24,000 nt of DNA from an archaeon HR01 (GTDB lineage Archaea > Thermoproteota > Nitrososphaeria_A > Caldarchaeales > Caldarchaeaceae): assembly GCA_002898355.1 (NCBI GenBank), contig BEHD01000013.1, positions 39,424 through 63,423 of the forward strand, given 5' to 3'. The notes below the pieces were generated by a model that was not told the origin of the DNA, searched no databases, and saw only the letters and a program-made list of their open reading frames with translations. The position numbers were made by a program, and so were the translations under genes. This document shows positions 3,367 to 20,166 of this stretch, piece after piece. The stretch's first letter is position 1. Each line of letters starts with the position of its first letter.

Positions 3367-4362
3367 ATGGTTGAGGGGGAGAAGCTTCTCACGATGTATA
3401 GGGATATGGTGATGGCCCGTGTTTTTGACAGCTGGATGGTGAAACTCCAGAGGATGGGGAGGGTTGCGGCCTATACATCGTCTGAGGGGCAGGAGGCCAT
3501 AGCTGTCGGGGCCGCCCACGCCTTAAGACCTGATGACTGGATATTCCCAACCTACAGGGAGACGGGGGCCTACATCGCGAGAAGGGTGCCTTTGGAGGTT
3601 TTGGTGGCCCGCCAGCTGGGGTCCGTCTTAGACCCTCTCAAAGGCCATGAGGTTCTCCTCTTCGGTGGTAGAAGATTTAGAATAGTAACTGGTCCGGGAC
3701 CTGTTGCCGCCCATCTCTGCACCTCGGTAGGATTCGCCCTAGCAGCGAAATATCGCGGAGAGGACACGGTTGTGCTGGCCTTTTTCGGGGATGGCGCCAC
3801 ATCCAAGGGTGACTTCAACGAAGGATTGAATATGGCCGGTGTCACAGATGCCCCCGTAGTCTTTATCTGCCAAAACAACCAGTACGCCATCTCTGTCCCC
3901 CTATCAAGGCAGACAGCCTCCGAATCTATTGCCGTAAAGGCTAAAGCCTATGGTCTTGATGGTGTCCGGATTGATGGTAACGACATCCAAGCATGCTATC
4001 TAACCACTTTGGAGGCTGTTGAGAAGGCCCGGAGAGGCGGTGGCCCAACCCTCATCGAGGCCTTCACATACAGGCTCGCCCCCCATTCAACCGCCGACGA
4101 CCCAAGCAGATACATCTCTAGAGAGGAGCTGGAGGAGTGGAGAAAGCGTGACCCTCTCAAACGTCTGAAAAAAGAGCTGGTGAGTAGGGGACTATGGGAT
4201 GAGGAGAGGGACAGGCAGCTCTACAGCGACTGCGACCGGCTTATCAGCTCGAAGATTGAGGAGGTGGAAAAGGCAGCCCCACTACCCATACAAGCAATAC
4301 TGGAGGATGTATATCACACTCCTCCATGGCATCTAAAGGAGGAGCTTGAGTCCCTAAAGTGA
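3367..4362 (+). CDS. Thiamine-diphosphate-dependent 2-oxoacid dehydrogenase E1 component, alpha subunit
   Basis: 331 aa. The TPP-binding block is FFGDGATSKGDFNEGLNMA...VVFICQNNQYAIS, and the E1-alpha signature is TYRLAPHSTADDPSRY. No E1-beta, E2 or E3 ORF follows. Confidence 0.85.
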   Translation: MVEGEKLLTMYRDMVMARVFDSWMVKLQRMGRVAAYTSSEGQEAIAVGAAHALRPDDWIFPTYRETGAYIARRVPLEVLVARQLGSVLDPLKGHEVLLFGGRRFRIVTGPGPVAAHLCTSVGFALAAKYRGEDTVVLAFFGDGATSKGDFNEGLNMAGVTDAPVVFICQNNQYAISVPLSRQTASESIAVKAKAYGLDGVRIDGNDIQACYLTTLEAVEKARRGGGPTLIEAFTYRLAPHSTADDPSRYISREELEEWRKRDPLKRLKKELVSRGLWDEERDRQLYSDCDRLISSKIEEVEKAAPLPIQAILEDVYHTPPWHLKEELESLK

Positions 4363-4381
4363 AATCTGTAAAAACGTTTAT

Positions 4382-5701
4382 ATGCATGCCGGAACTGTCA
4401 TCAGTATGCCGTATGATAAATCTCCGGGAAAGATAAGTAGGAGGAAGGCAATTAGCAGTGCAGCAGCGGCCGGAGCTATAGTGGGCGTCGGTATTGTGGC
4501 CGGCTTGGGAGGATATCTCGCCGGGGCCTCCACAGGAGGTAGGGTTGAGACAGCCACCGTGACCAATGTCCAGACCCAGACACAAACCGTTACAGCCCCA
4601 CAGCTTCCCAGAGAAGTGAAGATAGGAGTGATTCTGCCCCTAAGCGGTGAGCTAGGCCCGATAGGCATTAAGATGCTCAACGGCGCTAAGCTGGCTGAGA
4701 CCCTTATCAATAGATGGGGAGGATTATCCGGTAGTACAGTCACAGTGGTGGCGGAGGACAGCCTCGCCCTCCCCGACAAGGCTCTGGATGCTGTGAAGAA
4801 GCTAGTTGAGGTGGATGGCGTGCAGGTTATAGCCGGCCCAGCCACCAGCGTAGAGGTTTTAACTGTTGCAGACTACGCCACCTCTAGAAAGGTCCCGCTC
4901 ATCAGCATGTCGGCCACCGCAGCGTCCATCTCGAGGATTGGCGGACAATACATCTTCAGAGTTGTGCCCAGCGATGCGGTACAGACACAGGCCCTAGCAG
5001 ACCTTATAAGGTCTCAGGGCATCCGACGGCTAGCCACATTCGTGGTATCCAACGACTACGGAATAGGAATTGAGGGGGGTGTGAAGGCCCAGCTTGGCGA
5101 TATTGTGGTACTTAGCATACGGTATGACCCGGCCAAGGGTGACTATAGGGAGGAGCTGAGCAGGATAAAGGATGCCAACGTGGATGCGATACTCTGGGCC
5201 ACATGGGTTGAGAGCGGTATAGTTGCTATGAAGCAGGCCTCAGACCTAGGCCTCACCAATATCAGAAGCTTCGGAGCTGAGGGGATGAGGGACACATCCT
5301 TCTTCGCAGACGCGAAAGCCGCCGAATACCTACTCCAGACCAATATGATGGGAACAAGCCCCAGCGCTCCAGCGGAGACACTCGCATCTAAACAGTTCGT
5401 GGAGGATTATAAGCGGGAGTTCGGTGAAGAGCCAGGCCTCTTCGGCGACACCACATACGATGCCACCATGGTCGCCGCACTCGCTATAGCCAGGGCTGGA
5501 GTATACGATGGAGCCAAAATCGCCAGCCAAATCAAACCAGCAGCATACCACTATGTGGGCCCCAGCGGCCACAAGATGATGAACGAGTCAGGGGACGCCG
5601 TGCTAGCCACATATGATATATGGCGGGTTGCAAAACGGGGAGACGAATACGTCATAGAGTCTATGGGAAGCTGGGACACGGCTGCAGGACTTAAAATATA
5701 A
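4382..5701 (+). CDS. ABC transporter substrate-binding protein, Leu/Ile/Val-binding (type 1 PBP) family, membrane-anchored
   Basis: KIGVILPLSGELGPIGIKMLNGAKLA...VQVIAGPATSVEVL...IFRVVPSD is the LivJ/K-type pattern. The N-terminus SRRKAISSAAAAGAIVGVGIVAGLGG is a Tat-like/TM anchor followed by a TQTQTQT linker. An alternative start at ATG 4406 (MPYDK..) sits about 26 nt downstream of the TATA-like tttatatg (4377-4384). Confidence 0.85.
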   Translation: MHAGTVISMPYDKSPGKISRRKAISSAAAAGAIVGVGIVAGLGGYLAGASTGGRVETATVTNVQTQTQTVTAPQLPREVKIGVILPLSGELGPIGIKMLNGAKLAETLINRWGGLSGSTVTVVAEDSLALPDKALDAVKKLVEVDGVQVIAGPATSVEVLTVADYATSRKVPLISMSATAASISRIGGQYIFRVVPSDAVQTQALADLIRSQGIRRLATFVVSNDYGIGIEGGVKAQLGDIVVLSIRYDPAKGDYREELSRIKDANVDAILWATWVESGIVAMKQASDLGLTNIRSFGAEGMRDTSFFADAKAAEYLLQTNMMGTSPSAPAETLASKQFVEDYKREFGEEPGLFGDTTYDATMVAALAIARAGVYDGAKIASQIKPAAYHYVGPSGHKMMNESGDAVLATYDIWRVAKRGDEYVIESMGSWDTAAGLKI

Positions 5702-5709
5702 AACTCATA

Positions 5710-5720
5710 ATTTTTTATTT
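5710..5720 (+). terminator. Oligo-T tract (possible intra-operon attenuator/terminator after the binding-protein gene)
   Basis: ttttttatttt lies immediately downstream of the stop at 5701, in a 54-nt spacer before the permease gene. Archaeal terminators are oligo-T runs. Confidence 0.3.
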
Positions 5721-5755
5721 TCCCTATTTCTCTTTCCCAGCTTTGGGAGAACGAT

Positions 5756-6664
5756 GTGGTTTTAGAGCCGTCAACCCTACAGACAGTGACCAACGGCCTC
5801 ATTACGGGAAGCATCTATTTTCTTGCAGCTGTAGGGCTTACACTGCAGTATCAGCTGATGAAGTTTCCTAATCTCTCCCATGCGGAGCTTTTCGCCGTGG
5901 GAGCCTTCGTCACCTATCTGCTGGCTGATGTGGTGAAGCTGGGGTTCTGGCCAGGCCTAGCCTTCAGCATGTTATTCACTGGCGGTGTTGCCGCCGCTCT
6001 CTACATAACAGTCTTTAAAACCCTTATCAAGCGTGGGGCTACACTTTTACATCTTATCATAGCATCTGCGGGTCTGGGTATACTTCTGAGGTATTTGATG
6101 TGGGAGATTGCGGGGAGAAAATCTTATTTCTACTCCCATGTATTCTCTCCCTTCGATGTGGGTCCTGTTAGGCTTACGACCCTATGGCTCGCCATGATTG
6201 TGGTGGCTGTTGCCTCGCTAATCGCTCTTCTCCTATTTCTCTCTAGAACTAGGGTTGGTAAGGCTTTACGCGGTCTTGCCAGCAACCCCGTTCTCGCCAG
6301 ACTCTCTGGGGTTAGATCTGAAGCAGTCATAGTTCTAGTCTGGGCGGTTTCGGGTATGCTGGCAGCCCTGGGAGGAACACTCCGAGCAGCCGATACAAGA
6401 ATTATCCCTGAACTGGGGGTGGAGGTTCTCATACCCATGTTCGCTGTCTCAATCCTAGGAGGAATCGGGAGCGTAAGCGGGGCCTTTGCAGCGGCCTACA
6501 TCATAGGATTGTCGGAGAGCTTCGGGGTTGTTGCTCTAAGTCGGATGGGGCTGTCAACAGAGTATAAAGCGTTAATAGCCTTCGCAGCTCTGGTGGCCAC
6601 TATAATAGTCCTGCCCACAGGTTTAAGCTCTCTCATCTCTAAAGAGAGGATGAGACGTGACTAA
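5756..6664 (+). CDS. livH: Branched-chain amino acid ABC transporter permease (LivH-type)
   Basis: 302 aa, polytopic. The N-terminus LQTVTNGLITGSIYFLAAVGLTL is typical of the LivH family. GTG start. The next gene overlaps it by 8 nt. Confidence 0.8.
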   Translation: MVLEPSTLQTVTNGLITGSIYFLAAVGLTLQYQLMKFPNLSHAELFAVGAFVTYLLADVVKLGFWPGLAFSMLFTGGVAAALYITVFKTLIKRGATLLHLIIASAGLGILLRYLMWEIAGRKSYFYSHVFSPFDVGPVRLTTLWLAMIVVAVASLIALLLFLSRTRVGKALRGLASNPVLARLSGVRSEAVIVLVWAVSGMLAALGGTLRAADTRIIPELGVEVLIPMFAVSILGGIGSVSGAFAAAYIIGLSESFGVVALSRMGLSTEYKALIAFAALVATIIVLPTGLSSLISKERMRRD

Positions 6665-7562
6665 TCTAGACCTCTTCATATTGGATAGCGTCATAACGGC
6701 TGGCTACTTCGCTATACTCGCCCTCAGCCTCAACATAGAGTATGGGTATTCGGGGCTTATAGATTTCGGCAAGGCAGCCTTCTTCGCATTGGGGGCGTAT
6801 ACCTCTGCGCTTCTAGCCATCAACGGCTATCCAGCGGCCCTGGCTGTAGCCGTGGCCATGCTTGTCTCAGGACTTGGTGGACTGGCGATATCGGTGCCTG
6901 CCATCAGGGTGAGAAGTGACTACCTCGCCATCATAACCTTGGTTTTCGCAGAATCTATCAGGGTTGTTCTCAAGAATGAGAGCTGGCTGGCCGGAGGTGT
7001 TCTGGGGATACGTGGAATACCACCCATGATAGACCTGCGCAACATATCCTATGACATTCACTTGGTCGGGCAAGCCATATTCGTCCTACTACTCTTCACG
7101 GTCTTCGCAGTTGTGGGCTGGCTTCTCACCAACTCCCCATTCGGCAGAATATTGAGGGCCATCAGAGAGGATGAGCTGGCCTCCAGCGTCTATGGCAAGA
7201 ACAACACAGCCGTCAAGGCGGTTGTATTCAGCCTAGCCTCAGCCATGTCCGGCGCTGCGGGGAGCTTCTACTCACAGTATGTGGGCTTCGTCTCACCCGA
7301 CCTCTTCATACTAGCCATCACTCTGCAGATATGGATTATGAGTATTCTGGGTGGGCCTGCCACAATTCTCGGCGGCTTGGCTGGGGCTATTTTATTCACC
7401 TCTATCGGGAGAGGGACGAGGATATTGAAGGACTACCTCAACCTCCCCATAGACGCCAACAACATGATGTTCATACTCACCGGCGTCCTACTGGTCTTGG
7501 TGGTTACCTTCAGGCCGACTGGGTTGCTGAAGGAGGGGAGAATAAGGAGTGGGGGACGCTGA
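6657..7562 (+). CDS. livM: Branched-chain amino acid ABC transporter permease (LivM-type)
   Basis: 301 aa, polytopic. GYSGLIDFGKAAFFALGAYTSA is a LivM-type motif. GTG start inside the livH 3' end. Confidence 0.8.
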   Translation: MTNLDLFILDSVITAGYFAILALSLNIEYGYSGLIDFGKAAFFALGAYTSALLAINGYPAALAVAVAMLVSGLGGLAISVPAIRVRSDYLAIITLVFAESIRVVLKNESWLAGGVLGIRGIPPMIDLRNISYDIHLVGQAIFVLLLFTVFAVVGWLLTNSPFGRILRAIREDELASSVYGKNNTAVKAVVFSLASAMSGAAGSFYSQYVGFVSPDLFILAITLQIWIMSILGGPATILGGLAGAILFTSIGRGTRILKDYLNLPIDANNMMFILTGVLLVLVVTFRPTGLLKEGRIRSGGR

Positions 7563-8340
7563 CACCATCCTAGAAACTAGGAGCCTCAGCCTATCCTTTG
7601 GAGGGCTAAAGGCTGTAGATGATGTAAGTCTCAAAGTAGAGCGTTCCAAGATATTCGGCCTCATAGGACCGAACGGCAGTGGGAAAACCTCCCTCTTCAA
7701 CTTGATAACTGGAGTCTACAGGCCTGAAGTGGGGCGGATATTCTTCGATGGGCGGGAGATAACGGGGCTCCCACCACATAAGATATACAGGCTGGGTATC
7801 GTGAGAAGCTTCCAGTTTCCCAGACTCTTCTACAGGATGTCTGTATTGGACAACCTCGTCTTCGCTGCCAGAAACCAAAGGGGTGACAACCCTGTTGCAG
7901 CAGTCTTTGGTAGAAATATTTACCGGAGGCAGGAGAGGTTTTTCATGGAGAGGGGGCTGGAGATTCTAGAGAGGCTGGGCCTCGCAGAATATGCGGATAA
8001 AGTTCCCAGCGAGCTCTCTGGAGGTCAGCTCAAGCTTCTGGAGCTGGGCCGTGCTATTATGGCTGAGCCAAAGCTGCTTCTCCTAGATGAGCCGGCGGCC
8101 GGAGTAAGCCCCATCCTAGTATCGAAAATATTTAAGACAATATCACAGCTCAGGGAGAGGGAGGGGCTGACCGTTTTCATAATTGAACACAGGCTTAACG
8201 TGGTGGAGGAGTACACTGACTGGGTATATGTAATGCATCGTGGAAGGCTATATCTTAGCGGGCCCCCCGGAAAGGTGCTGGGGGATAGACGTCTCATGTC
8301 CATATATGTAGCGGGGGATGCTGCGGTTGACGAGGCTTGA
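7549..8340 (+). CDS. livG: Branched-chain amino acid ABC transporter ATP-binding protein (LivG-type)
   Basis: Walker A GPNGSGKTS, signature LSGGQLKLLELGRA, Walker B LLLLDEPAAG, H-loop IIEHRL. GGAGG lies about 10 nt upstream of the GTG start. Confidence 0.9.
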   Translation: MGDADTILETRSLSLSFGGLKAVDDVSLKVERSKIFGLIGPNGSGKTSLFNLITGVYRPEVGRIFFDGREITGLPPHKIYRLGIVRSFQFPRLFYRMSVLDNLVFAARNQRGDNPVAAVFGRNIYRRQERFFMERGLEILERLGLAEYADKVPSELSGGQLKLLELGRAIMAEPKLLLLDEPAAGVSPILVSKIFKTISQLREREGLTVFIIEHRLNVVEEYTDWVYVMHRGRLYLSGPPGKVLGDRRLMSIYVAGDAAVDEA

Positions 8341-9052
8341 GATAAGGAATCTCCGCGCTGGATACGGACGTGTAGAGATAATACATGGCGTGGATTTGGA
8401 GGTGGGTGAGAGGGAGATTGTGGCTATTATAGGGCCGAATGGTAGCGGCAAATCCACCCTCCTAAAGAGTGTGGTGGGCCTCACGAATATTTTCTCAGGA
8501 AATGTGCGACTGGATGGTTTGGAGCTTGTCGGGCGTAGCACGGAGGATATAGCTAGGGCGGGCGTGGCTTTCACACCTCAGGTAGACAACATATTCACCA
8601 ACCTAACATGCGATGAGAATCTTGAGTTGGGAGGATACAACATATCGGATAAGAGGTTACTGGACAGAAGGAAGGCTGAGATGTATAATATCTTCCACGA
8701 GATTGGCAGGCTCAGGGATAGGAGGGCCGGTTTATTGAGTGGTGGTGAGAGGCAGATGGTGGCATTAGCGAGGGCTTTGATATCGAAGCCCAAGATTCTG
8801 ATGTTGGATGAGCCTACCGCCAACCTCTCCCCCAAGGCAGCCTCATCCGTGGCCAAGAAGGTGTTGGAGATAAAGGAGGGAGGCATACCGGTTGTTCTTG
8901 TGGAGCAGAACGTCAAATTCGCCTTGGACCTGGCCGACAGGATGTGCGTCCTAGTTTCAGGTGTTAAAACATTTGAGGGGAGTCCACAGGAGCTGATGGA
9001 GATGGACCTCCAGCAAGTGTTTCTGGGGTTGAAGGGTAGGTCGGGTGGTTAG
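8318..9052 (+). CDS. livF: Branched-chain amino acid ABC transporter ATP-binding protein (LivF-type)
   Basis: Walker A GPNGSGKST, signature LSGGERQMVALARA, Walker B ILMLDEPTANL, and VLVEQN. It overlaps livG by 23 nt. Confidence 0.9.
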   Translation: MLRLTRLEIRNLRAGYGRVEIIHGVDLEVGEREIVAIIGPNGSGKSTLLKSVVGLTNIFSGNVRLDGLELVGRSTEDIARAGVAFTPQVDNIFTNLTCDENLELGGYNISDKRLLDRRKAEMYNIFHEIGRLRDRRAGLLSGGERQMVALARALISKPKILMLDEPTANLSPKAASSVAKKVLEIKEGGIPVVLVEQNVKFALDLADRMCVLVSGVKTFEGSPQELMEMDLQQVFLGLKGRSGG

Positions 9053-12874: not shown

Positions 12875-13855
12875 ATGGCCGTTTCTAGGGTGAAGTTTGC
12901 GATTCCGAAAGGCTCCCTCGAGGCCGCTACATTGGATATACTGTCTAGGGCTATGCTCAAACTCCATGGTGCAGACAGGACATACAGGCCTGTTGTGGAC
13001 GACCCGCTCCTTGAAGTGAAGATTTTAAGGCCTCAGGAGATACCTGTTCTCGTCGAGTCCGGCGCCTACGATATAGGGATTACTGGGCTGGACTGGGTGA
13101 GGGAGACAGGTGCCGATGTGCTTGAGCTGATGGACCTTGAGTATGGACGTGTGCAGCTGGTGGTGGCAGAGCCCAACACCAAGAACCATCAGTCGCTGGC
13201 CGAAATCATAATGGACCATCCCAGCCTCAAGATATCTACAGAATATCTTAACACCACCTTAAAACATGTCATGGCCAACCCTGTATATAGACGGCTTTAC
13301 GGCAGCCTCCAACCCATGGTTGTTACGCCTTGGTGGACGAGGGGTGAGAATGAGAAGGTGAAGATATTTCTAAGTTTTGGAGCTACCGAGGCTAAGCCTC
13401 CCGAGGACGCCGACATTATAGTGGACGCATCCCAGACAGGTATTACGCTGGAGAAGAACAACCTAAGGGTTGTGGAGGTTATAGGCGAGTCTACGGCCCG
13501 GCTTATAGCCAACCGGGAATCCTACAAGGATGCCGAGAAGAGGGAGAAGATACTGGATATAGTGACGCTTCTGAGGGGTGTTGTGGAGAGCGGCAAGAAG
13601 CTTCATGTTTTTGCCAACGTTAGAGAGGAGAATCTATCCCAGCTACTCACGCTTCTCCCCAGCCTGAAAAGCCCTACCATCAGCCCGCTCTCGGTTAAGG
13701 GATGGTACGCTATAAACACGGTGATACCTAAAGGAGAGCTTCTCAAGATATTACCCACACTGAGAAGGCTAGCCCAAGGCCTTGTCATACATGAGCCACA
13801 ACTCATCCTACCCCTGGAAGACATTGTGAAAGAGAGCGAGAAGAACAACCCCTGA
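12875..13855 (+). CDS. hisG: ATP phosphoribosyltransferase
   Basis: FAIPKGSLEAATLDIL...RPQEIPVLVESGAYDIGITGLDWVRE...FGATEAKPPEDADIIVDASQTGITLEKNNL matches the HisG pattern. The ATG at 12875 is preceded by aGGTGA (12865-12870). Confidence 0.8.
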   Translation: MAVSRVKFAIPKGSLEAATLDILSRAMLKLHGADRTYRPVVDDPLLEVKILRPQEIPVLVESGAYDIGITGLDWVRETGADVLELMDLEYGRVQLVVAEPNTKNHQSLAEIIMDHPSLKISTEYLNTTLKHVMANPVYRRLYGSLQPMVVTPWWTRGENEKVKIFLSFGATEAKPPEDADIIVDASQTGITLEKNNLRVVEVIGESTARLIANRESYKDAEKREKILDIVTLLRGVVESGKKLHVFANVREENLSQLLTLLPSLKSPTISPLSVKGWYAINTVIPKGELLKILPTLRRLAQGLVIHEPQLILPLEDIVKESEKNNP

Positions 13856-14041
13856 ATAGTATAGCGTCTTTGGAGGCATCAGCAGGCATATCAACAAGTT
13901 GAAGATGAAAAATAGCGACGTACAAAATAGGGGAGTTGCCGAATCTAATTTTTCCATTTTTTGCCCTAAATCTGAGGTCAGCATCACCATCGGCTGAACC
14001 TCCACCACATTCCGTTTCCTTGGGTATGTTGGAATAATGTG

Positions 14042-14133
14042 TGCGGCCGCCGGGATTTGAACCCGGGATCCCCAGCGTGGCAGGCTGGTAACAGGTATTA
14101 TGCTATGTCCTGACCAGACTAGACTACGGCCGC
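14042..14133 (-). tRNA. tRNA-Gly (anticodon GCC) with a 17-nt non-canonical intron; CCA not encoded
   Basis: The reverse complement folds as follows. Acceptor stem GCGGCCG/CGGCCGC. D-arm GTCT-AGTCTGGTCA-GGAC. Anticodon arm CCAGC-CTGCCAC-GCTGG (U33, GCC, A37). Variable loop GGATC. T-arm CCGGG-TTCAAAT-CCCGG. Discriminator A. The mature length is 75 nt after removing the 17 nt inserted between the D-arm and the anticodon stem. Confidence 0.9.
14090..14106 (-). other. tRNA intron at a non-canonical position (about 25/26), relaxed bulge-helix-bulge
   Basis: The intron is ATAGCATAATACCTGTT. CAGG (5' exon) pairs with CCTG (intron) as the 4-bp central helix. This helix is flanked by ACA and TTA bulges, and CTGG/CCAG forms the outer helix. 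Cutting after the 2nd nt of each bulge regenerates GGAC-A-CCAGC. Confidence 0.7.
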
Positions 14134-14158
14134 ACACCATGCGTCATATGATTGGAGG

Positions 14159-14241: not shown

Positions 14242-14562
14242 TCATCCTCGTCTCCTCATGGTTGAATAGGCGGCCAACACCGCTAGAAAGACCAAGGCGA
14301 CGCCGGCTGCGATGAAGGGGTTCACTATGTTGGAGGCTGCTAGGCCGACCCCGATGACCAGTGATATCCCGCCCCATAGGATGTAGTAGAGCTGGTCCTT
14401 AGAGGAGGCTCCGTACACGGCCGTATATATCCCGAATATCGAGAGGACCAGGCCCAGAGCCGTTAGAGGTTCGACAGACACAGCTCCAGACCCTCCCAAG
14501 ATGAGGAGTGCCCCAGCTGAGACTAGTATGGTGACAAGGGCTCCGGCTCCATACTTTATCAT
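14242..14562 (-). CDS. Small 4-TM membrane protein (last gene of the Zn-ribbon/SPFH cluster)
   Basis: 106 aa from ATG 14562, which overlaps the upstream stop as ATGA. Four hydrophobic helices (GAGALVTILVSAGALLILGG, LTALGLVLSIFGIYTAVYG, LYYILWGGISLVIGVGLAA, FIAAGVALVFLAVLAAY) and a basic C-terminus, RRRG. Confidence 0.6.
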   Translation of the reverse strand: MIKYGAGALVTILVSAGALLILGGSGAVSVEPLTALGLVLSIFGIYTAVYGASSKDQLYYILWGGISLVIGVGLAASNIVNPFIAAGVALVFLAVLAAYSTMRRRG

Positions 14563-15584
14563 GATATCTGGGCACCGCATTCGGGGCAGAATTTGGCGCC
14601 CGGCTGTACTGGATGACCGTTAGGGCATGTGGAAGCCATCTTTGCACCGCACTCTGGGCAGAACTTGTACCCCTGAGGTACTTCATGGCCGTTGGGGCAT
14701 CTCACCGTCGGCAGCTGTGGTGTTATCGGCTTGCCGCAGCTCCCGCAGTATCTGACACCTTGTGGGTTTTGGAAGCCGCAGTGGGGGCATGCCACAAGGA
14801 CTGTTTGGGCCTGCTGTGCGGGGGGCTGGAAGAGGGGAGGTATCACAGCTATTCCCGCGCCAATGGCCGCACCCTGGCTCTGGGAGAGGGCCTCAGCCGT
14901 CTTGGTGACGGTCTGCATCCTCAGAACCTCAGCCGCCGGCACGCCCTGCCTCAGGAAGAATATCCTATCCCTCCACTCGGAAGTCGTGTCCAACCCCTCA
15001 AACTTGACATCTATCAGCTCAAGCCCTATCCTAGAGAAGGCTGAGCCGACAGCGTTCCTAGCCATGAAGCTGGTCTCATCCAGCTTTCCGTAGACATCCA
15101 CTATGCTGTGCTGGCTCAGCTCGTCGATGAAGGATTGGTTGAAGTATCCCCTGATGAAGTCCTGAAGCTGTTCCGTGGAGTAGGCTCCCTGGGAGCCGAC
15201 CACCTCTTGGACGAAGAGGTTGGGCTCTGCAACCCTGAACCAGAAGCTTCCAAAGAACTTCAGGGGCGCCAGCTCCTTCGTCTGCCCCTGCGAGCCGAAC
15301 TTACCCTGAAACTGCTTGAGCGAGACAAAGATAACTGAGGCTTTGAAAGGCACCCTGTCGAAGCCGGTGAAGGCGGATAACAGCTTGCCTAGGAGGGGTA
15401 GGTTGGCTGTTGTGATAACATGCCTGCCAGCCCTGAAGACATCGTAGGCTTTCCCATCCCTGAGAAAGACCGCAGCCTGCGACTCCTCGACGATTAGGCT
15501 GCTCCCCCACTCTATCTCATCTATAGGATATCTCCATACGATGTCGGAATCTCTAGCACCTGTCCACTGTATAACCTTTGGCAT
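14559..15584 (-). CDS. SPFH-like protein of the YdjI/COG4260 (Band_7_1) type with three C-terminal zinc ribbons
   Basis: The N-terminus VIQWTG..DIVWRYP..EIEWGSSLIVEESQAAVFLRDGKAYDVFRAGRHVITTANLPLL matches my recollection of the YdjI-family pattern. The C-terminus carries CPHCG-x9-YCGSCG plus two CPNGH-x8-FCPECG units. The ATG overlaps the upstream stop as TGATG. Confidence 0.75.
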   Translation of the reverse strand: MPKVIQWTGARDSDIVWRYPIDEIEWGSSLIVEESQAAVFLRDGKAYDVFRAGRHVITTANLPLLGKLLSAFTGFDRVPFKASVIFVSLKQFQGKFGSQGQTKELAPLKFFGSFWFRVAEPNLFVQEVVGSQGAYSTEQLQDFIRGYFNQSFIDELSQHSIVDVYGKLDETSFMARNAVGSAFSRIGLELIDVKFEGLDTTSEWRDRIFFLRQGVPAAEVLRMQTVTKTAEALSQSQGAAIGAGIAVIPPLFQPPAQQAQTVLVACPHCGFQNPQGVRYCGSCGKPITPQLPTVRCPNGHEVPQGYKFCPECGAKMASTCPNGHPVQPGAKFCPECGAQIS

Positions 15585-16093
15585 CAGCCTGTCACCTCCA
15601 CCAGACCCTTCAGTATTCCCGCCCTCACATCTATAAGATGGTCCAGCTCGGCGACTGCGGCCCTCACCTCGTTGAGTTTAGCCCTCCAACCCTCAGAGCC
15701 GGTATCCATGGCTACGAGGTCTGAGACCAACGCCTTGACAGACTCTGCCTTTTCTATAAGCTTGAGGTCGTGGTTCAGCACTTCGTCCAACCTGTCCTCC
15801 CGGACCTTGACCGCGTCGAAGAGTCCAGCATATCCTGAGACGGCCTTGTCGATGCGCTGGGTAGCCCTGTCCAGCTCCGCCCTGAGGTTCTCGAAGGTGA
15901 ATCTGATGTCCTGGTCGTTGGCCAGGGTTCTCGCCGCTGAGGGGGTTAGGGGCCTGTTGAGAATCGATCTACTCTCCATGAGAGCCATGCTTACTCTTCT
16001 CCTGACGAGGATATCGGCCTCCCGCCTCATCTCCTTCTCCTTATACCCCCTATACCCCGGTATGTAGCTGGCTATCCTTTCAAGAAGCCCCAT
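15584..16093 (-). CDS. All-helical, charge-rich protein of unknown function with an amphipathic N-terminus
   Basis: 169 aa from ATG 16093, which is preceded by aGGAGGgag. The track ORF begins at a TTG 27 nt upstream (16120), where I see no RBS. The sequence is rich in heptad-like E/R/K/L/A segments, with no TM helix and no Cys. Confidence 0.6.
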   Translation of the reverse strand: MGLLERIASYIPGYRGYKEKEMRREADILVRRRVSMALMESRSILNRPLTPSAARTLANDQDIRFTFENLRAELDRATQRIDKAVSGYAGLFDAVKVREDRLDEVLNHDLKLIEKAESVKALVSDLVAMDTGSEGWRAKLNEVRAAVAELDHLIDVRAGILKGLVEVTG

Positions 16094-16157
16094 CTCCCTC
16101 CTAATACGCTCAACACTCAACGATTACACTCTCCCCCGGATAAACATCGAGAGGCAT

Positions 16158-16174
16158 CATATAAGTCATATATC
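16158..16174 (-). promoter_or_regulatory. Tandem TATA-like boxes inside the cluster spacer
   Basis: The minus strand reads gatatatgacttatatga (two TATATGA units), 65-80 nt upstream of ATG 16093, in the only sizeable gap of the cluster (125 nt). Confidence 0.3.
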
Positions 16175-16245
16175 GTCTGCGGTCCTCGGTTAACCGTATC
16201 ATGGCTTCTCGATGCAACACCCTAAAATCTGCCATCCTTCCAGTG

Positions 16246-17244
16246 CTAGCGTCGCAGCTCTTTCAACAGTTCCCTGCCCAAGTCCGAGGTTGTTCTCCCC
16301 GTAAGTTTCTCTCTGGCTTTGGTGGGTTTGAGGCTTCTCCAGAAGTAGATGATGGCTGCGGCTAAGAATCCCAGGAAGGCCGACGTAGCTGGCAGGGTGC
16401 CGAAAGACCATAGTAGAGCCGCCATCAAAACCCCCGCTATAATATGCGCTGCCCCCATTCCTGCATAGCTTGCCTTCTCCAGAATGTCGGGCGGATAGGT
16501 TGCCTCAACCACCCTTGACGACGATGCGTCTATCAGGGCCCTGTACTGCCGGCCCTTAAAAATGTATACCACCTCCCAGACAGGGACGTAGACAAGTACG
16601 AGGTCTGATATCTTGATTTCATCGTTTCTTGATGTGACCTCGACGACCTCTCTTCCTATCATCTTGGTCAGCTCCGAGGCCGCAATCTCCCTAAACATTT
16701 TTTCAGCCTCATCCCTTGTAACTGTTGCACCATGTAGTACGCCACCTTTCTGCTTAACGTATTCGTGGCTGAAGTAGAGCCTGCCTCTGGAGACCGCCGT
16801 CATCTCATCAATCTTTATCTCTGGGGAGGCTGGTATGGCTGCCTCGATGTATTTCTCGAATACGCCAGATTCCTGCTTTGTGATTGTTCTTACTGTTCGA
16901 TATCCTCCCATTTCCGGGTTTCCGTATTCCAAGTCTTCTCCCACCCCCGTGAATGATGTCTTCGCCTCAACCGTGGCGGTCCAGAAGGGTAGGAAGTGGA
17001 GCTTCACATCCTTGAGTATGATGTTGAAGGGCAGCGACTCCTCATAACCTGTCTGCTTCTTCACCCATAGAAGGAAGTTCTCTATCGCCCTGCTGCTATC
17101 GTAGTGGACCGGCAGCACGTATCTCTGCTCGTCTTGGAAGGTTTTGAAGGAGAAGCCGCAGTACCTGCATTTTATCGCCACATCACCCTCCCTCACCTCG
17201 TGGAGTGCGCCGCAGTTGGGGCATTGGTATTCTGTGTTGGTCAT
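16246..17244 (-). CDS. Zn-ribbon / soluble domain / C-terminal 2-TM protein, paralog B
   Basis: 332 aa. The ribbon is YQCPNCGALHEV..IKCRYCGF. The motifs LPFW and LVYVPVWEVVYIFKGRQYRALID are present. The C-terminal helices are ASYAGMGAAHIIAGVLMAALLWSF and ATSAFLGFLAAAIIYFW. The ATG lies 1 nt after the upstream stop. Confidence 0.7.
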   Translation of the reverse strand: MTNTEYQCPNCGALHEVREGDVAIKCRYCGFSFKTFQDEQRYVLPVHYDSSRAIENFLLWVKKQTGYEESLPFNIILKDVKLHFLPFWTATVEAKTSFTGVGEDLEYGNPEMGGYRTVRTITKQESGVFEKYIEAAIPASPEIKIDEMTAVSRGRLYFSHEYVKQKGGVLHGATVTRDEAEKMFREIAASELTKMIGREVVEVTSRNDEIKISDLVLVYVPVWEVVYIFKGRQYRALIDASSSRVVEATYPPDILEKASYAGMGAAHIIAGVLMAALLWSFGTLPATSAFLGFLAAAIIYFWRSLKPTKAREKLTGRTTSDLGRELLKELRR

Positions 17245-17245
17245 T

Positions 17246-18247
17246 TCAGGCCACCACCATCAAATCCCTTTCCTCACCGGCCTTCATCAGCCTCTGCTCC
17301 TGAGACGCCGTATATGCACCTACGGCTCCCGCTATCATCGAGGCCACTGGAGGGCCGGCTACTATGGCCAGCTTGAGCTCGTCCGGTATTTCCTCTATCC
17401 AAATCAATGGCTGGAGCGCTACAGTGGCTAGGGAGATGGCTAGGATGGCGGCCGCTGCTGCGATGGATCTCACCGCCCTACCTTTCATGGTTAACGGTAG
17501 CTCGGCCATGAGGGGCTTGACAGAGCCTCTGACGCCGTCAAATGAGAGCCTGTAGGATTTTCCAGCCGACTCGTAGCGGGCTTCGACGATAGGATAGAGT
17601 ACAAGCAAAGCCGTTGACTGGGTAGCCTCAGTATAGCAGTCGAAGACCTTGGTGGCCATAGCCTCAACCCTCCTCCTATGCTCTTCGGCGGCTCTTGTCT
17701 TCGCAGCCTCCACAGCCTCTTTCATGTCAAGCTCGGAGCCTATGGCGGCCCAACCCTTCAACATCTGCGGGTTGATTGGCTGAGACTCCGTCCGCCGTCT
17801 CAGGACACTGTTCTTCACCAGTCCCAGGCCGAAAACGGATTCAAACCTTCTCCCGTAAACCGCCACCGCTACCTTCTCTCTAATGACTCCTTTAACAGGA
17901 ATGTACACGGTGTAGGTGGTTGTCCTTCTTCCGGTAGTCTTGGTTCTAATCTCCCTTCTATAGCCGTTATATCTAGTGCTGACATCCATCTCCACCACCC
18001 AGAAGGGAACCATGACCGCTCTTACCTCCCTAACCGATGCATCACCTACTCGAGACCTGACGAAAGAATCTACTGCCGTCCTGACAGCTCCCCAGTCTTC
18101 ACACTCAATCATCAAAGGCTTGACCTGAACCCCCTCAAGAGTCGTGGCCAGCCCGCAGTAGTTACAGATCAGAACCACTGTATCGGGTGAGAGCTCTATT
18201 GGCGCACCGCAGTTGGGGCATTTTCCCGCCAGCCCTTCCCTCTCCAT
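17246..18247 (-). CDS. Zn-ribbon / soluble domain / C-terminal 2-TM protein, paralog A
   Basis: 333 aa. The ribbon is GKCPNCGAPIEL..LICNYCGL. The motifs VPFW and LVLYPIVEARYESAGKSYRLSFD are present. The C-terminal helices are AVRSIAAAAAILAISLATVAL and LKLAIVAGPPVASMIAGAVGAY. Confidence 0.7.
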   Translation of the reverse strand: MEREGLAGKCPNCGAPIELSPDTVVLICNYCGLATTLEGVQVKPLMIECEDWGAVRTAVDSFVRSRVGDASVREVRAVMVPFWVVEMDVSTRYNGYRREIRTKTTGRRTTTYTVYIPVKGVIREKVAVAVYGRRFESVFGLGLVKNSVLRRRTESQPINPQMLKGWAAIGSELDMKEAVEAAKTRAAEEHRRRVEAMATKVFDCYTEATQSTALLVLYPIVEARYESAGKSYRLSFDGVRGSVKPLMAELPLTMKGRAVRSIAAAAAILAISLATVALQPLIWIEEIPDELKLAIVAGPPVASMIAGAVGAYTASQEQRLMKAGEERDLMVVA

Positions 18248-18271
18248 ATTGGCATGACATAAATCCGGCTG

Positions 18272-18280
18272 TTAATAATG
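18272..18280 (-). promoter_or_regulatory. TATA-like box upstream of the first cluster gene
   Basis: The minus strand reads cattattaa, centred about 29 nt upstream of ATG 18247. This would give a leaderless or very short-leader mRNA. Confidence 0.3.
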
Positions 18281-18309
18281 TATGTGCTTAGAGCTGGATA
18301 GGCTTAGAG

Positions 18310-18912
18310 TCACCGGGGCGATATATCATTCCTAATCCTCTTCAAAGCTATCCCTCTCGCAGTACCTTCAACATATCTCGATGTAAGCTCTATCTCCTCA
18401 AGCCACTTGATGCTCTGATAGCAGTGCTGCCGTGGGAAAACAAGCCTCAAGGGCCCCCCATGCTCGTGGGCCAGCACCTCTCCACGATGTTTATAGGCTA
18501 CAACCATGTCACCTATCTCGGATAGGGGAAAACATTCGGAGTACTCCCCGGACTTGAAGACCACGTATCGTGCATCCGGCAGGGGGCCGGCCATCTCCAG
18601 CAAGGTGCCAACCCTGACACCGAGCCATTCCGTGTCGGGCACCACCCAACCCTCCAAACATCGGAAGTCAAAGGTGAGGGATGTTGGAGGAAACCGCATT
18701 ATCTCCTCCAAGGATAGCTCGAGGGTCTTCAAGACCTGGCCACAGATCTTCAGACGCCATCTACTGGCTGGTGGCTGTGATGCTGGGAATGTTGGGAGCC
18801 TTTCGAGAATATGGTCCATACACCGGTTAGATGTCACCGCCAGGATATATTTTTTATCGGCGGCTAGGCGCTCTATCCCTGAAAGACATGAATAGGGTCT
18901 GCTTCGAGACAT
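18310..18912 (-). CDS. Small molybdopterin-binding oxidoreductase-like protein (sulfite oxidase/YedY-fold Oxidored_molyb domain)
   Basis: WRLKICGQV..LELSLEEI..FP..SLTFDFRCLEGW..TEWLGVRVGTLLEMAG...VVAYKHRGEVLAHEHGGPLRLVFPRQHCYQSIKWLEEIEL follows the Oxidored_molyb domain pattern. The N-terminal start is uncertain, and I see no obvious signal peptide. Confidence 0.7.
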   Translation of the reverse strand: MSRSRPYSCLSGIERLAADKKYILAVTSNRCMDHILERLPTFPASQPPASRWRLKICGQVLKTLELSLEEIMRFPPTSLTFDFRCLEGWVVPDTEWLGVRVGTLLEMAGPLPDARYVVFKSGEYSECFPLSEIGDMVVAYKHRGEVLAHEHGGPLRLVFPRQHCYQSIKWLEEIELTSRYVEGTARGIALKRIRNDISPR

Positions 18913-18957: not shown

Positions 18958-20166
18958 ATGAGGGAGAGGTTATCAGCTGATAGGAGGGTTGCGATTCCCG
19001 GGATAGCTCTGGCTACTCTCACAGGGTTAGCTGGAGTCTTCCTAGGTGCTCTCTGGCTACTCTCCATCTCCAACCCCCAATTATCCACGGCATATGTTAT
19101 ACATCATCCTAAGCTGGTGTTGTATGGTTTTGTCTACACATTCATAGCCTCTGTCGCGTCAGTTCTTGTCCCAAGGTTCAGAGACATACCTCCGGAGCAG
19201 AATGTAAGACTTAGGCAGGTCTCTATTGTACTACTGGCTGGGGGTGTGGCCCTGTCCATCACTGTCTACCCTTTCAACCTTCTAGGGTATCTGTCTGCGT
19301 TCTCGGGAGCGCTGGTCTTGGCGGTTCACACTGCAAAGGTACTGGGCAGGCCTAAAGGATGGCTGGCCCCTGCTGATCCTTTGATTGTTCTCTCGATGGT
19401 TTTGATGGCTGTTGCCATAGCAGTCCACGGCTGGCTGGAGCTATCGGGGGTCAGCCCCTTCTTAAGGGAGGGGATGCTACAGCTCGCCCTTTACGGAGCC
19501 CCAGCCTCCATGATTTTCGGCATAGGCATCAAGACCGTACGCTTCCGGATTAACCCCACCATGAGGAGGGATCTATGGTGGATGCTCACACCCACCCAAC
19601 TTCTCACATCGTCCACAGCATTAGCTGCTATCGTAAGTGGCAGCCAGCCCCTCGAGACGCTATCATCCACGTTTTTCCTCGCCTCATCGGTTTTGTGGGT
19701 CTTCTCCGTTGATGCTTTTCGCCGAATTCCGAGCGGGCTGTGGATATCTAGGATGGATGAAAGGGATAGGGCTAGATACCTCTATTTTTCCATGCTCTAC
19801 GTCATCGCCTCAGCCTGGCTCCTAGCAGCCTCAACCCTAGGGCTACTGACCCCACTAAGCAGGTTAACATATCCGACGGCCTGGTATTATCTTAGAGACA
19901 GCTTCATACACTCATTTACTGTAGGCTTCATAGCCAACATGATACTGGCCTACTCACCGATAATTCTTCCAAGCCTTCTATCTGGCCGGACACCCTACAT
20001 CGGACTAAGCTATCTTCCCGCCATCATGCTGAACACGGGAAATATAGCGAGGATTGCATGGTTTCTCTCTGGGGCTTCACCGGAGACAATCATTACAGCA
20101 GGCATATCACTCCTGTATTTCTCCTCGATTGGTCTAACGTTAGCCATGATGCACAGGCTGCGTTAG
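18958..20166 (+). CDS. Polytopic membrane protein (about 12 TM), possibly NnrS-family
   Basis: 402 aa. The His-containing blocks VIHHPKLVLYGFVYTFIASVASVLVPRF and FIHSFTVGFIANMILAYSPIILPSLLSGR resemble the NnrS H-x-H-E-M-x-F-G and H-x-x-x-x-G...GR blocks as I recall them. This is a weak, motif-level call. Confidence 0.4.
   Translation: MRERLSADRRVAIPGIALATLTGLAGVFLGALWLLSISNPQLSTAYVIHHPKLVLYGFVYTFIASVASVLVPRFRDIPPEQNVRLRQVSIVLLAGGVALSITVYPFNLLGYLSAFSGALVLAVHTAKVLGRPKGWLAPADPLIVLSMVLMAVAIAVHGWLELSGVSPFLREGMLQLALYGAPASMIFGIGIKTVRFRINPTMRRDLWWMLTPTQLLTSSTALAAIVSGSQPLETLSSTFFLASSVLWVFSVDAFRRIPSGLWISRMDERDRARYLYFSMLYVIASAWLLAASTLGLLTPLSRLTYPTAWYYLRDSFIHSFTVGFIANMILAYSPIILPSLLSGRTPYIGLSYLPAIMLNTGNIARIAWFLSGASPETIITAGISLLYFSSIGLTLAMMHRLR

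Follow-up and report, generated by a model that had tools for sequence, protein, structure and literature searches.

SPFH proteins are universal membrane organisers. Work on those of the soluble YdjI type has, to our knowledge, been confined to Bacillus, where they were always examined alongside PspA. Here we describe a cluster of five minus-strand genes, A to E, which includes a gene for a YdjI-type SPFH protein (D) and which lies in 'archaeon HR01', an Aigarchaeota/Caldarchaeales metagenome bin. The whole 24,000-nucleotide (nt) stretch of contig BEHD01000013.1 that was analysed is referred to below as the window. The closest described system is the pspA-ydjG-ydjH-ydjI operon of Bacillus (pspA-samGHI). 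In this operon YdjI is anchored by YdjG and YdjH, and PspA is recruited by YdjI (Scholz et al. 2021, PMC8581546); signalling by SamGH is restrained by SamI (Baur et al. 2026, bioRxiv 10.64898/2026.02.06.704340). How the domains of YdjG and YdjI are arranged in Firmicutes has already been described, and the central domain of YdjG was assigned an NTF2-like/YpeB-related fold (Ravi et al. 2024, PMC11237479). Among archaea, the 'Meth_adaptin' ESCRT loci carry SPFH, coiled-coil and Zn-ribbon proteins (Makarova et al. 2024, PMC11188069 / PMC10936438).

YdjI-type and YdjG-type proteins of the cluster

For comparison, the Bacillus operon was taken from four species by means of an exact match to the ydjG cloning primer printed in PMC8581546. 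An initial annotation of the window had assigned D to the PF13421/YdjI type, and the Pfam search bore this out with a match to PF13421 (Band_7_1) of 103.7 bits against a cut-off of 24. Alignment by BLASTP with YdjI of Bacillus stercoris (E = 5e-18) joined D 1-340 to YdjI 8-322, Zn ribbon included. The three C-terminal Zn ribbons that had been read from the letters were also recovered by Pfam (Zn_Ribbon_1 in three stretches, together with DZR); one is of the C4 type and two are of the C-H-C-C type. D was likewise correctly described as lacking transmembrane (TM) segments, as no hydrophobic segment reached the TM threshold in a Kyte-Doolittle scan. A near-identical protein from a metagenome-assembled genome (MAG) is named 'SPFH domain-containing protein', and a phmmer search of D against the sequences of the PDB gave no match. 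At the level of its sequence, D is a homologue of YdjI, a soluble SPFH protein with C-terminal Zn ribbons.

A and B are paralogues (23% identity, E = 4e-10). As had been noted from the letters, each carries a CPNCG...C.YCG ribbon and two C-terminal hydrophobic helices, which were seen both in hydropathy plots and in an AlphaFold2 (AF2) model of B (predicted local distance difference test, pLDDT, 81.9). The helices of A lie at residues 256-274 and 291-309, and the central domain of both proteins comprises ~220 residues. B could be aligned with YdjG by BLASTP across residues 5-278 (E = 3e-07). Moreover, a profile of 30 A/B-family sequences matched Bacillus YdjG with 99.4 bits, corresponding to about E = 1e-23 at a library size of 1.8 billion proteins, and A and B are therefore homologues of YdjG. 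The best domain of this match (84 bits) places profile positions 3-281 on YdjG 51-335 and covers the ribbon, the central domain and the TM part; the second match is to the first ribbon of YdjG. Judged by this profile similarity, A and B are true YdjG-family proteins, a relationship that the initial annotation had overlooked. Its description of the cluster as a rewired archaeal counterpart of Bacillus ydjGHI thus has a stronger link than was claimed, as not only D but also A and B have homologues in that operon.

The superfamily of A and B is large, with 8923 cluster representatives at E<=1e-3 in an exhaustive HMMER search. Among the best 148 of these, 110 have the architecture of YdjG (two Zn ribbons and one TM segment) and 22 have that of A and B themselves (one ribbon and two TM segments). 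No Pfam or NCBIfam family was found for the A/B central domain. A Foldseek search of the B model against the PDB returned nothing significant, the matches being long-beta-hairpin toxins and secretins at template-modelling scores of ~0.1. A different archaeon has an A-like/B-like pair with 2-TM hairpins by itself, beside TFIIB and Gar1 (L016:5989-8002 and L017:3277-5290). None of C, D and E lies close to it, so that the YdjG-like pair can be regarded as a sub-module separable from the rest.

The positions of the five genes and of other features of the window are listed in the table below. The open reading frames (ORFs) and junctions of the initial annotation were read directly and proved accurate: the stop of A and the start of B share TGAaATG (17248/17244), C and D share TGATG (15586/15582), and D and E share ATGA (14562/14559). 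Each of the public proteins, HRbin01_01444 to HRbin01_01448, is annotated as 'hypothetical protein'. Judged by their relatives, A to E are real genes rather than chance ORFs, because each has many conserved homologues. The spacer between B and C does contain tandem TATATGA boxes (16166-16172 and 16157-16163, 9 nt apart), and no other copy of this heptamer occurs on that strand across the whole window. Its length of 125 nt was also given correctly; however, its AT-richness is merely mild (48% GC, against 55% for the cluster). The same junction measures 3-10 nt in orthologous loci, and the spacer is therefore a local peculiarity of the HR01 genome that lies outside the design of the cluster. Its boxes may be a putative, HR01-specific internal archaeal promoter. 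The region with ATTATTAA upstream of A is a candidate promoter for the operon as a whole.

Table. Positions of the cluster genes and of further features in the window (aa, amino acids).
Feature	Position	Strand	Description
Gene A	17246-18247	-	HRbin01_01448, 333 aa; YdjG family; N-terminal C4 Zn ribbon C10..C31, alpha+beta central domain, C-terminal 2-TM hairpin
Gene B	16246-17244	-	HRbin01_01447, 332 aa; second YdjG-family paralogue; Zn ribbon C8..C29, TM ~254-281 and 283-305, K/R-rich C-terminal tail
B/C spacer	16121-16245	-	125 nt, two TATATGA boxes; by direct reading and GC content
Gene C	15584-16120	-	GBC69742.1, 178 aa, TTG start; soluble four-helix-bundle protein (model), unnamed family
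Gene D	14559-15584	-	GBC69741.1, 341 aa; TM-less YdjI-type SPFH, PF13421 at residues 16-199, three Zn ribbons ~264-340
Gene E	14242-14562	-	GBC69740.1, 106 aa; 4 TM, unnamed family; by hydropathy and alignment
Region upstream of A	18248-18309	-	62 nt; TATA-like ATTATTAA at 18272-18279, 32 nt before ATG
tRNA gene	14041-14133	-	93 nt (Rfam 49.6 bits), 108 nt past the end of gene E
ORF over the tRNA gene	13808-14140		110 aa, spurious
Molybdopterin oxidoreductase domain gene	18310-18912	-	200 aa; PF00174, MsrP/YedY-like
Polytopic membrane protein gene	18958-20166	+	402 aa, no Pfam match
Uptake cluster	3367-9052	+	E1 dehydrogenase, periplasmic binding protein, two BPD_transp_2 permeases, two ATP-binding cassette ATPases

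Outside the five genes, ARAGORN calls the tRNA 'Tyr (ata)', which is probably a mis-parsed reading of an archaeal tRNA with an intron. The molybdopterin oxidoreductase domain gene is divergent from the gene of the 402-aa protein, which may encode its unrecognised membrane partner. The uptake cluster is for branched-chain amino acids, consistent with the specialisation on these compounds that is reported for Calditenuaceae (PMC12979851).

Membership and order of the genes across loci

Loci from neighbourhood look-ups were combined with 80 metagenomic loci fetched with the C alignment, and all were scored with our own A/B, C, D and E profiles. The loci in the synteny count represent 42 C lineages at 90% identity. 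In every one of the 59 loci that extend at least 2.6 kb downstream of C, D follows C, either directly or with one A/B-like gene in between. All complete loci contain D (45/45) and nearly all contain E (43/45), which precedes C or follows D. Of these 45 loci, 23 have one or more YdjG-like genes, and 17 have two or more. The invariant core is E-C-D, and the YdjG-like genes are frequent but optional partners.

The most common order was E-C-D (32 loci), followed by AB-E-C-AB-D (17 loci), in which the YdjG-like proteins are TM-less and 250 and 413 aa long. The order of the window, AB-AB-C-D-E, is shared with other Aigarchaeota and was seen in six loci, with different flanking genes. Five loci each have AB-E-C-D and E-C-AB-D, and two have C-D-AB-AB (L008 and L009, with C 35% identical). 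Junctions across the loci are mostly overlaps of 1-4 nt or gaps of a few nt, the longest listed being 70 nt (from AB to E), and no further gene family recurs in the flanks. Synteny, which the initial annotation had proposed as a check, is thus present in many other genomes. Constant membership with shuffled order is strong evidence for a functional unit.

That the cluster is an accidental grouping of functionally unrelated neighbours is scarcely credible in the light of these counts. The 125-nt spacer with its TATA-like boxes could mean two transcription units. However, this spacer is absent from orthologous loci, and of the four junctions in HR01, three are overlaps or leave a single-base gap. 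Moreover, the same five families recur in at least six gene orders across the 42 non-redundant C lineages. The initial annotation had offered an antiviral role in membrane integrity as an alternative. The genes would then form a module for defence against viruses or for abortive infection that acts on membrane integrity, and the compact, mobile-looking unit with its varied flanking genes would fit such a role. A closer inspection gave this alternative no support, and we regard it as very improbable. The five proteins have no significant match in PADLOC (best E 0.0013, to a Zn ribbon only), and no relatives of C were found in phage genomes and plasmids (tblastn) or in a scan of IMG/VR contigs. 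The flanks contain housekeeping genes and not defence islands. From Aigarchaeota to Bathyarchaeia, C keeps ~50% identity and a constant length, as expected of a core function that is inherited vertically and not of a patchily distributed defence gene.

Several loci carry additional proteins. An Arrestin_N-like protein of 196-205 aa with a C-terminal Zn ribbon is encoded convergently, right after the SPFH gene, in five of the 42 C lineages (examples are L004:9557-10147, L005, L006 and L089:8942-9559), adding one more Zn-ribbon protein to the locus. A 352-aa protein directly upstream of C-D replaces E and the YdjG-like genes in two loci (L044:8911-9969 and L088:8542-9600). It has an apparently helical N-terminal half and a C-terminal Zn ribbon, Pfam gives only weak sub-threshold ribbon matches, and the A/B profile matches it, probably via the C-terminal ribbon alone. 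Behind the two YdjG-like genes of a C-D-AB-AB locus there is a 188-aa protein with an N-terminal CxxC (L008:6554-7120) and no Pfam or NCBIfam match. Finally, a probably bacterial locus (L007:2244-8125) reads XpaC (PF10112), TelA, DUF2927, Band_7_1+GYF, (CZB) and a double-Zn-ribbon YdjG-like protein, which makes a third kind of helical stress protein adjoining YdjI/YdjG-type genes.

The helical protein C and the membrane protein E

C belongs to a family of more than 1300 homologues, nearly all of 172-181 aa; in Aigarchaeota, Bathyarchaeia and other Nitrososphaerota MAGs they share ~50% identity with it. The length of C had been left at 169-178 aa. Only the 178-aa form stands: it starts at TTG, has the same length in the public record, and is real because orthologues conserve the residues before the internal ATG. 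A start at that internal ATG, which would expose a PspA-like 'MGLL..R' N-terminal helix, was considered and rejected, as the preceding residues are conserved and the Met is not. The description of C as all-helical and charge-rich agrees with its 34% of charged residues and with its AF2 model (pLDDT 82.8; predicted template-modelling score, pTM, 0.80). In this model two short helices precede a compact bundle of four helices of ~30 residues each (28-54, 60-93, 108-136 and 143-174). Two motifs are conserved, YIPGYRGYKEKExRRExD at residues 19-36 and RIDxAVxGYAGxFDAVKVxEDxLD at residues 89-112, and the dips in model confidence coincide exactly with the invariant segments 19-36 and 93-112. Given the up-down order of the modelled helices, both segments would lie at the same end of the bundle, where they are predicted to form a partner-binding surface.

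None of 44 family members scanned matched a Pfam family, and the C profile found nothing below E 0.05 among PDB sequences. C was matched by the NCBIfam family NF047596 ('LIMLP_15305 family protein', Leptospira) with 30.2 bits, and its relatives with 46-52 bits, against a cut-off of 210. The matches of C-family members are full-length (175 versus 178 aa; E 1e-12 to 1e-14). On these scores C is a distant homologue of NF047596 and not a member, and the match therefore places C in a wider superfamily that includes bacteria. The sole paper found to name LIMLP_15305 contains it as a table entry, with no function given. Together with the divergent C-D-YdjG-YdjG locus, the Leptospira match suggests that the module is probably not purely archaeal. 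A weak BLAST match of C to an XpaC-like protein (E 0.07) was dropped, there being no PF10112 signal from Pfam in the 44 members.

The initial annotation had put C into the slot of PspA, as a membrane-remodelling effector of the ESCRT-III superfamily that is recruited by the SPFH scaffold. C adjoins the SPFH gene and is all-helical and highly charged, and helical stress proteins stand beside YdjI/YdjG-type genes elsewhere: in Bacillus, PspA is encoded ahead of ydjG, and L007 contains XpaC and TelA. However, the searches argue against kinship. No match to PF04012 or PF03357 was found at E<=1 in the 44 family members, and the comparison of C with PspA gave an hhalign probability of 0.08% and an hmmsearch score of 2 bits. 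Foldseek against the PDB returned generic helical bundles (best E>=0.09) with no PspA or Vipp1 among the matches; the sole ESCRT-III entry for the monomer model of C was CdvB2, at rank 47 with a template-modelling score of 0.25. The bundle is compact and, in this monomer model, lacks the long alpha1-alpha2/3 hairpin of ESCRT-III. An effector of the PspA kind is therefore quite improbable, and the place of C 'in the PspA slot' would be an analogy of gene position only, real but weak.

E is a 106-aa protein with four hydrophobic helices, as had been noted, and its start at the ATGA overlap is exactly that of the public record; a 112-aa version is not in the protein collection. None of the 23 members scanned matched a Pfam family. 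The sole conserved polar motif of the family is YT..Y....KD..YY..WG, located between TM2 and TM3. By the positive-inside rule, which places the RRRG C-terminus in the cytoplasm, the loop with this motif would be cytoplasmic as well. These features bear on the question of what holds D at the membrane, a task that the initial annotation had given to A and B along with E. YdjG-like proteins occur in about half of the loci and are TM-less in one common order, and they are therefore not the general membrane dock; the 4-TM protein E is the better candidate. In the AB-E-C-AB-D loci, where the YdjG-like proteins are TM-less, E is therefore the sole integral membrane component.

A proposed membrane complex and its relation to known systems

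The product of the cluster is, in our view, likely to be an SPFH complex of the YdjG/YdjI type that is associated with the membrane. The complex would be a form typical of Thermoproteota archaea, and the cluster is widely conserved in hot-spring and sediment archaea. D would oligomerise beneath the membrane, like other SPFH proteins, and would be held there by E. In Aigarchaeota, a heterodimer of A and B would also dock D, as YdjG and YdjH do for YdjI in Bacillus, with the K/R-rich tails of A and B pointing to the cytoplasm. C would be translated together with D, bind it through its two most conserved segments, and act as an adaptor, regulator or effector of the D scaffold. The complex may sense, buffer or report membrane or envelope stress. 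With rather less assurance, though still on balance, we favour this reading as a whole, that is, an archaeal YdjG/YdjI (SamG/SamI)-type membrane SPFH complex with a role in membrane stress; the stress function and the role of C are inferred by analogy with the Bacillus system.

Four points weigh against it. Firstly, two of the four Bacillus components, PspA and YdjH, are missing, and function is therefore not simply transferable from Bacillus. PspA was found neither in the window nor in 91 related loci (phmmer with Bacillus PspA), nor in the Pfam tables of the neighbourhoods. YdjH/TPM had no match outside the Bacillus loci among the scored loci, and no TPM family appears in the neighbourhood tables. 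Secondly, about half of the loci have no YdjG-like partner, and in AB-E-C-AB-D these partners are TM-less, so that their role is not uniform. Thirdly, C and E have no characterised relatives, and the Foldseek matches in the PDB are non-significant for C and not meaningful for B. Lastly, the host organisms are known mostly from metagenomes.

Alternatively, D might build a cage like HflK/C or stomatin/NfeD, in which an SPFH oligomer encloses and regulates a membrane client instead of serving as a stress sensor. E, the constant membrane partner of D, would then serve as client or gatekeeper; it might, for instance, be a small channel or the substrate of a protease. Baur et al. (bioRxiv 10.64898/2026.02.06.704340) discuss SPFH proteins generally as scaffolds around membrane complexes, and a 24-mer HflK/C cage is cited in PMC11188069. 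We think a cage, though plausible for SPFH proteins, unlikely here. The neighbourhoods hold no client gene besides E, and genes for a protease, NfeD or a transporter do not recur in them. In addition, D is without the TM anchor that cage-forming SPFH proteins have, and E has no recognisable family.

The YdjG/YdjI pair thus extends to uncultivated archaeal lineages. There the SPFH/YdjG platform is joined almost always to two unnamed families, and PspA is absent from the operon, which makes these loci a natural experiment on what the platform does alone. Two abundant families of 'hypothetical proteins', one of them C with its many homologues, gain a concrete and testable context. Cultivated Caldarchaeales now exist (PMC9246946, PMC12979851), and expression under membrane stress can therefore be tested. 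More tentatively, and with considerable doubt, we suggest that E-C-D might be an ancient, PspA-independent SPFH system. C, with its PGYRGYKEKE and AGYAGxFD motifs, would then represent a new class of SPFH-coupled effector or regulator in Thermoproteota and some bacteria, including the relatives of LIMLP_15305 in Leptospira. On this view a shared YdjG/YdjI platform would provide docking for exchangeable cargoes, namely PspA, TelA/XpaC and C.

In line with the initial annotation, which took the cluster to be undescribed in archaea, literature searches found no description of the E-C-D(+YdjG) module or of the C and E families. The 'Meth_adaptin' loci resemble it in having an archaeal SPFH protein with a Zn ribbon inside a conserved membrane-related neighbourhood. 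They differ in their ESCRT-III/Vps4, adaptin-appendage, GOLD and ProX genes, which did not turn up in the E-C-D neighbourhoods, and the accessible portion of PMC11188069 does not report C, E or YdjG-like genes for them. SPFH-NfeD pairs and the HflK/C-FtsH cage are alike in that an SPFH scaffold is genetically coupled to a small membrane protein. They differ from the archaeal cluster, in which D lacks a TM anchor, E shows neither an NfeD/OB domain nor a Pfam match, and there is no protease.

The pspA-ydjGHI operon of Bacillus shares more with the cluster. Both are tightly linked operons, both encode a soluble PF13421 SPFH protein with one or more C-terminal Zn ribbons (D and YdjI), and both encode proteins that combine a Zn ribbon, a central alpha+beta domain and a C-terminal TM part (A/B and YdjG). 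In contrast to the single YdjG of Bacillus, with two ribbons and one TM segment, the window has two paralogues with one ribbon and two TM segments each, and many archaeal loci have either no YdjG-like genes or ones whose products are soluble. The four-helix-bundle protein C and the 4-TM protein E are near-constant in the archaeal loci and belong to families without a counterpart in Bacillus; in the cluster they take the places that PspA and YdjH have in the Bacillus operon. Taken together, these comparisons point to the archaeal module being a so far undescribed form of the known YdjG/YdjI system rather than a categorically new one.

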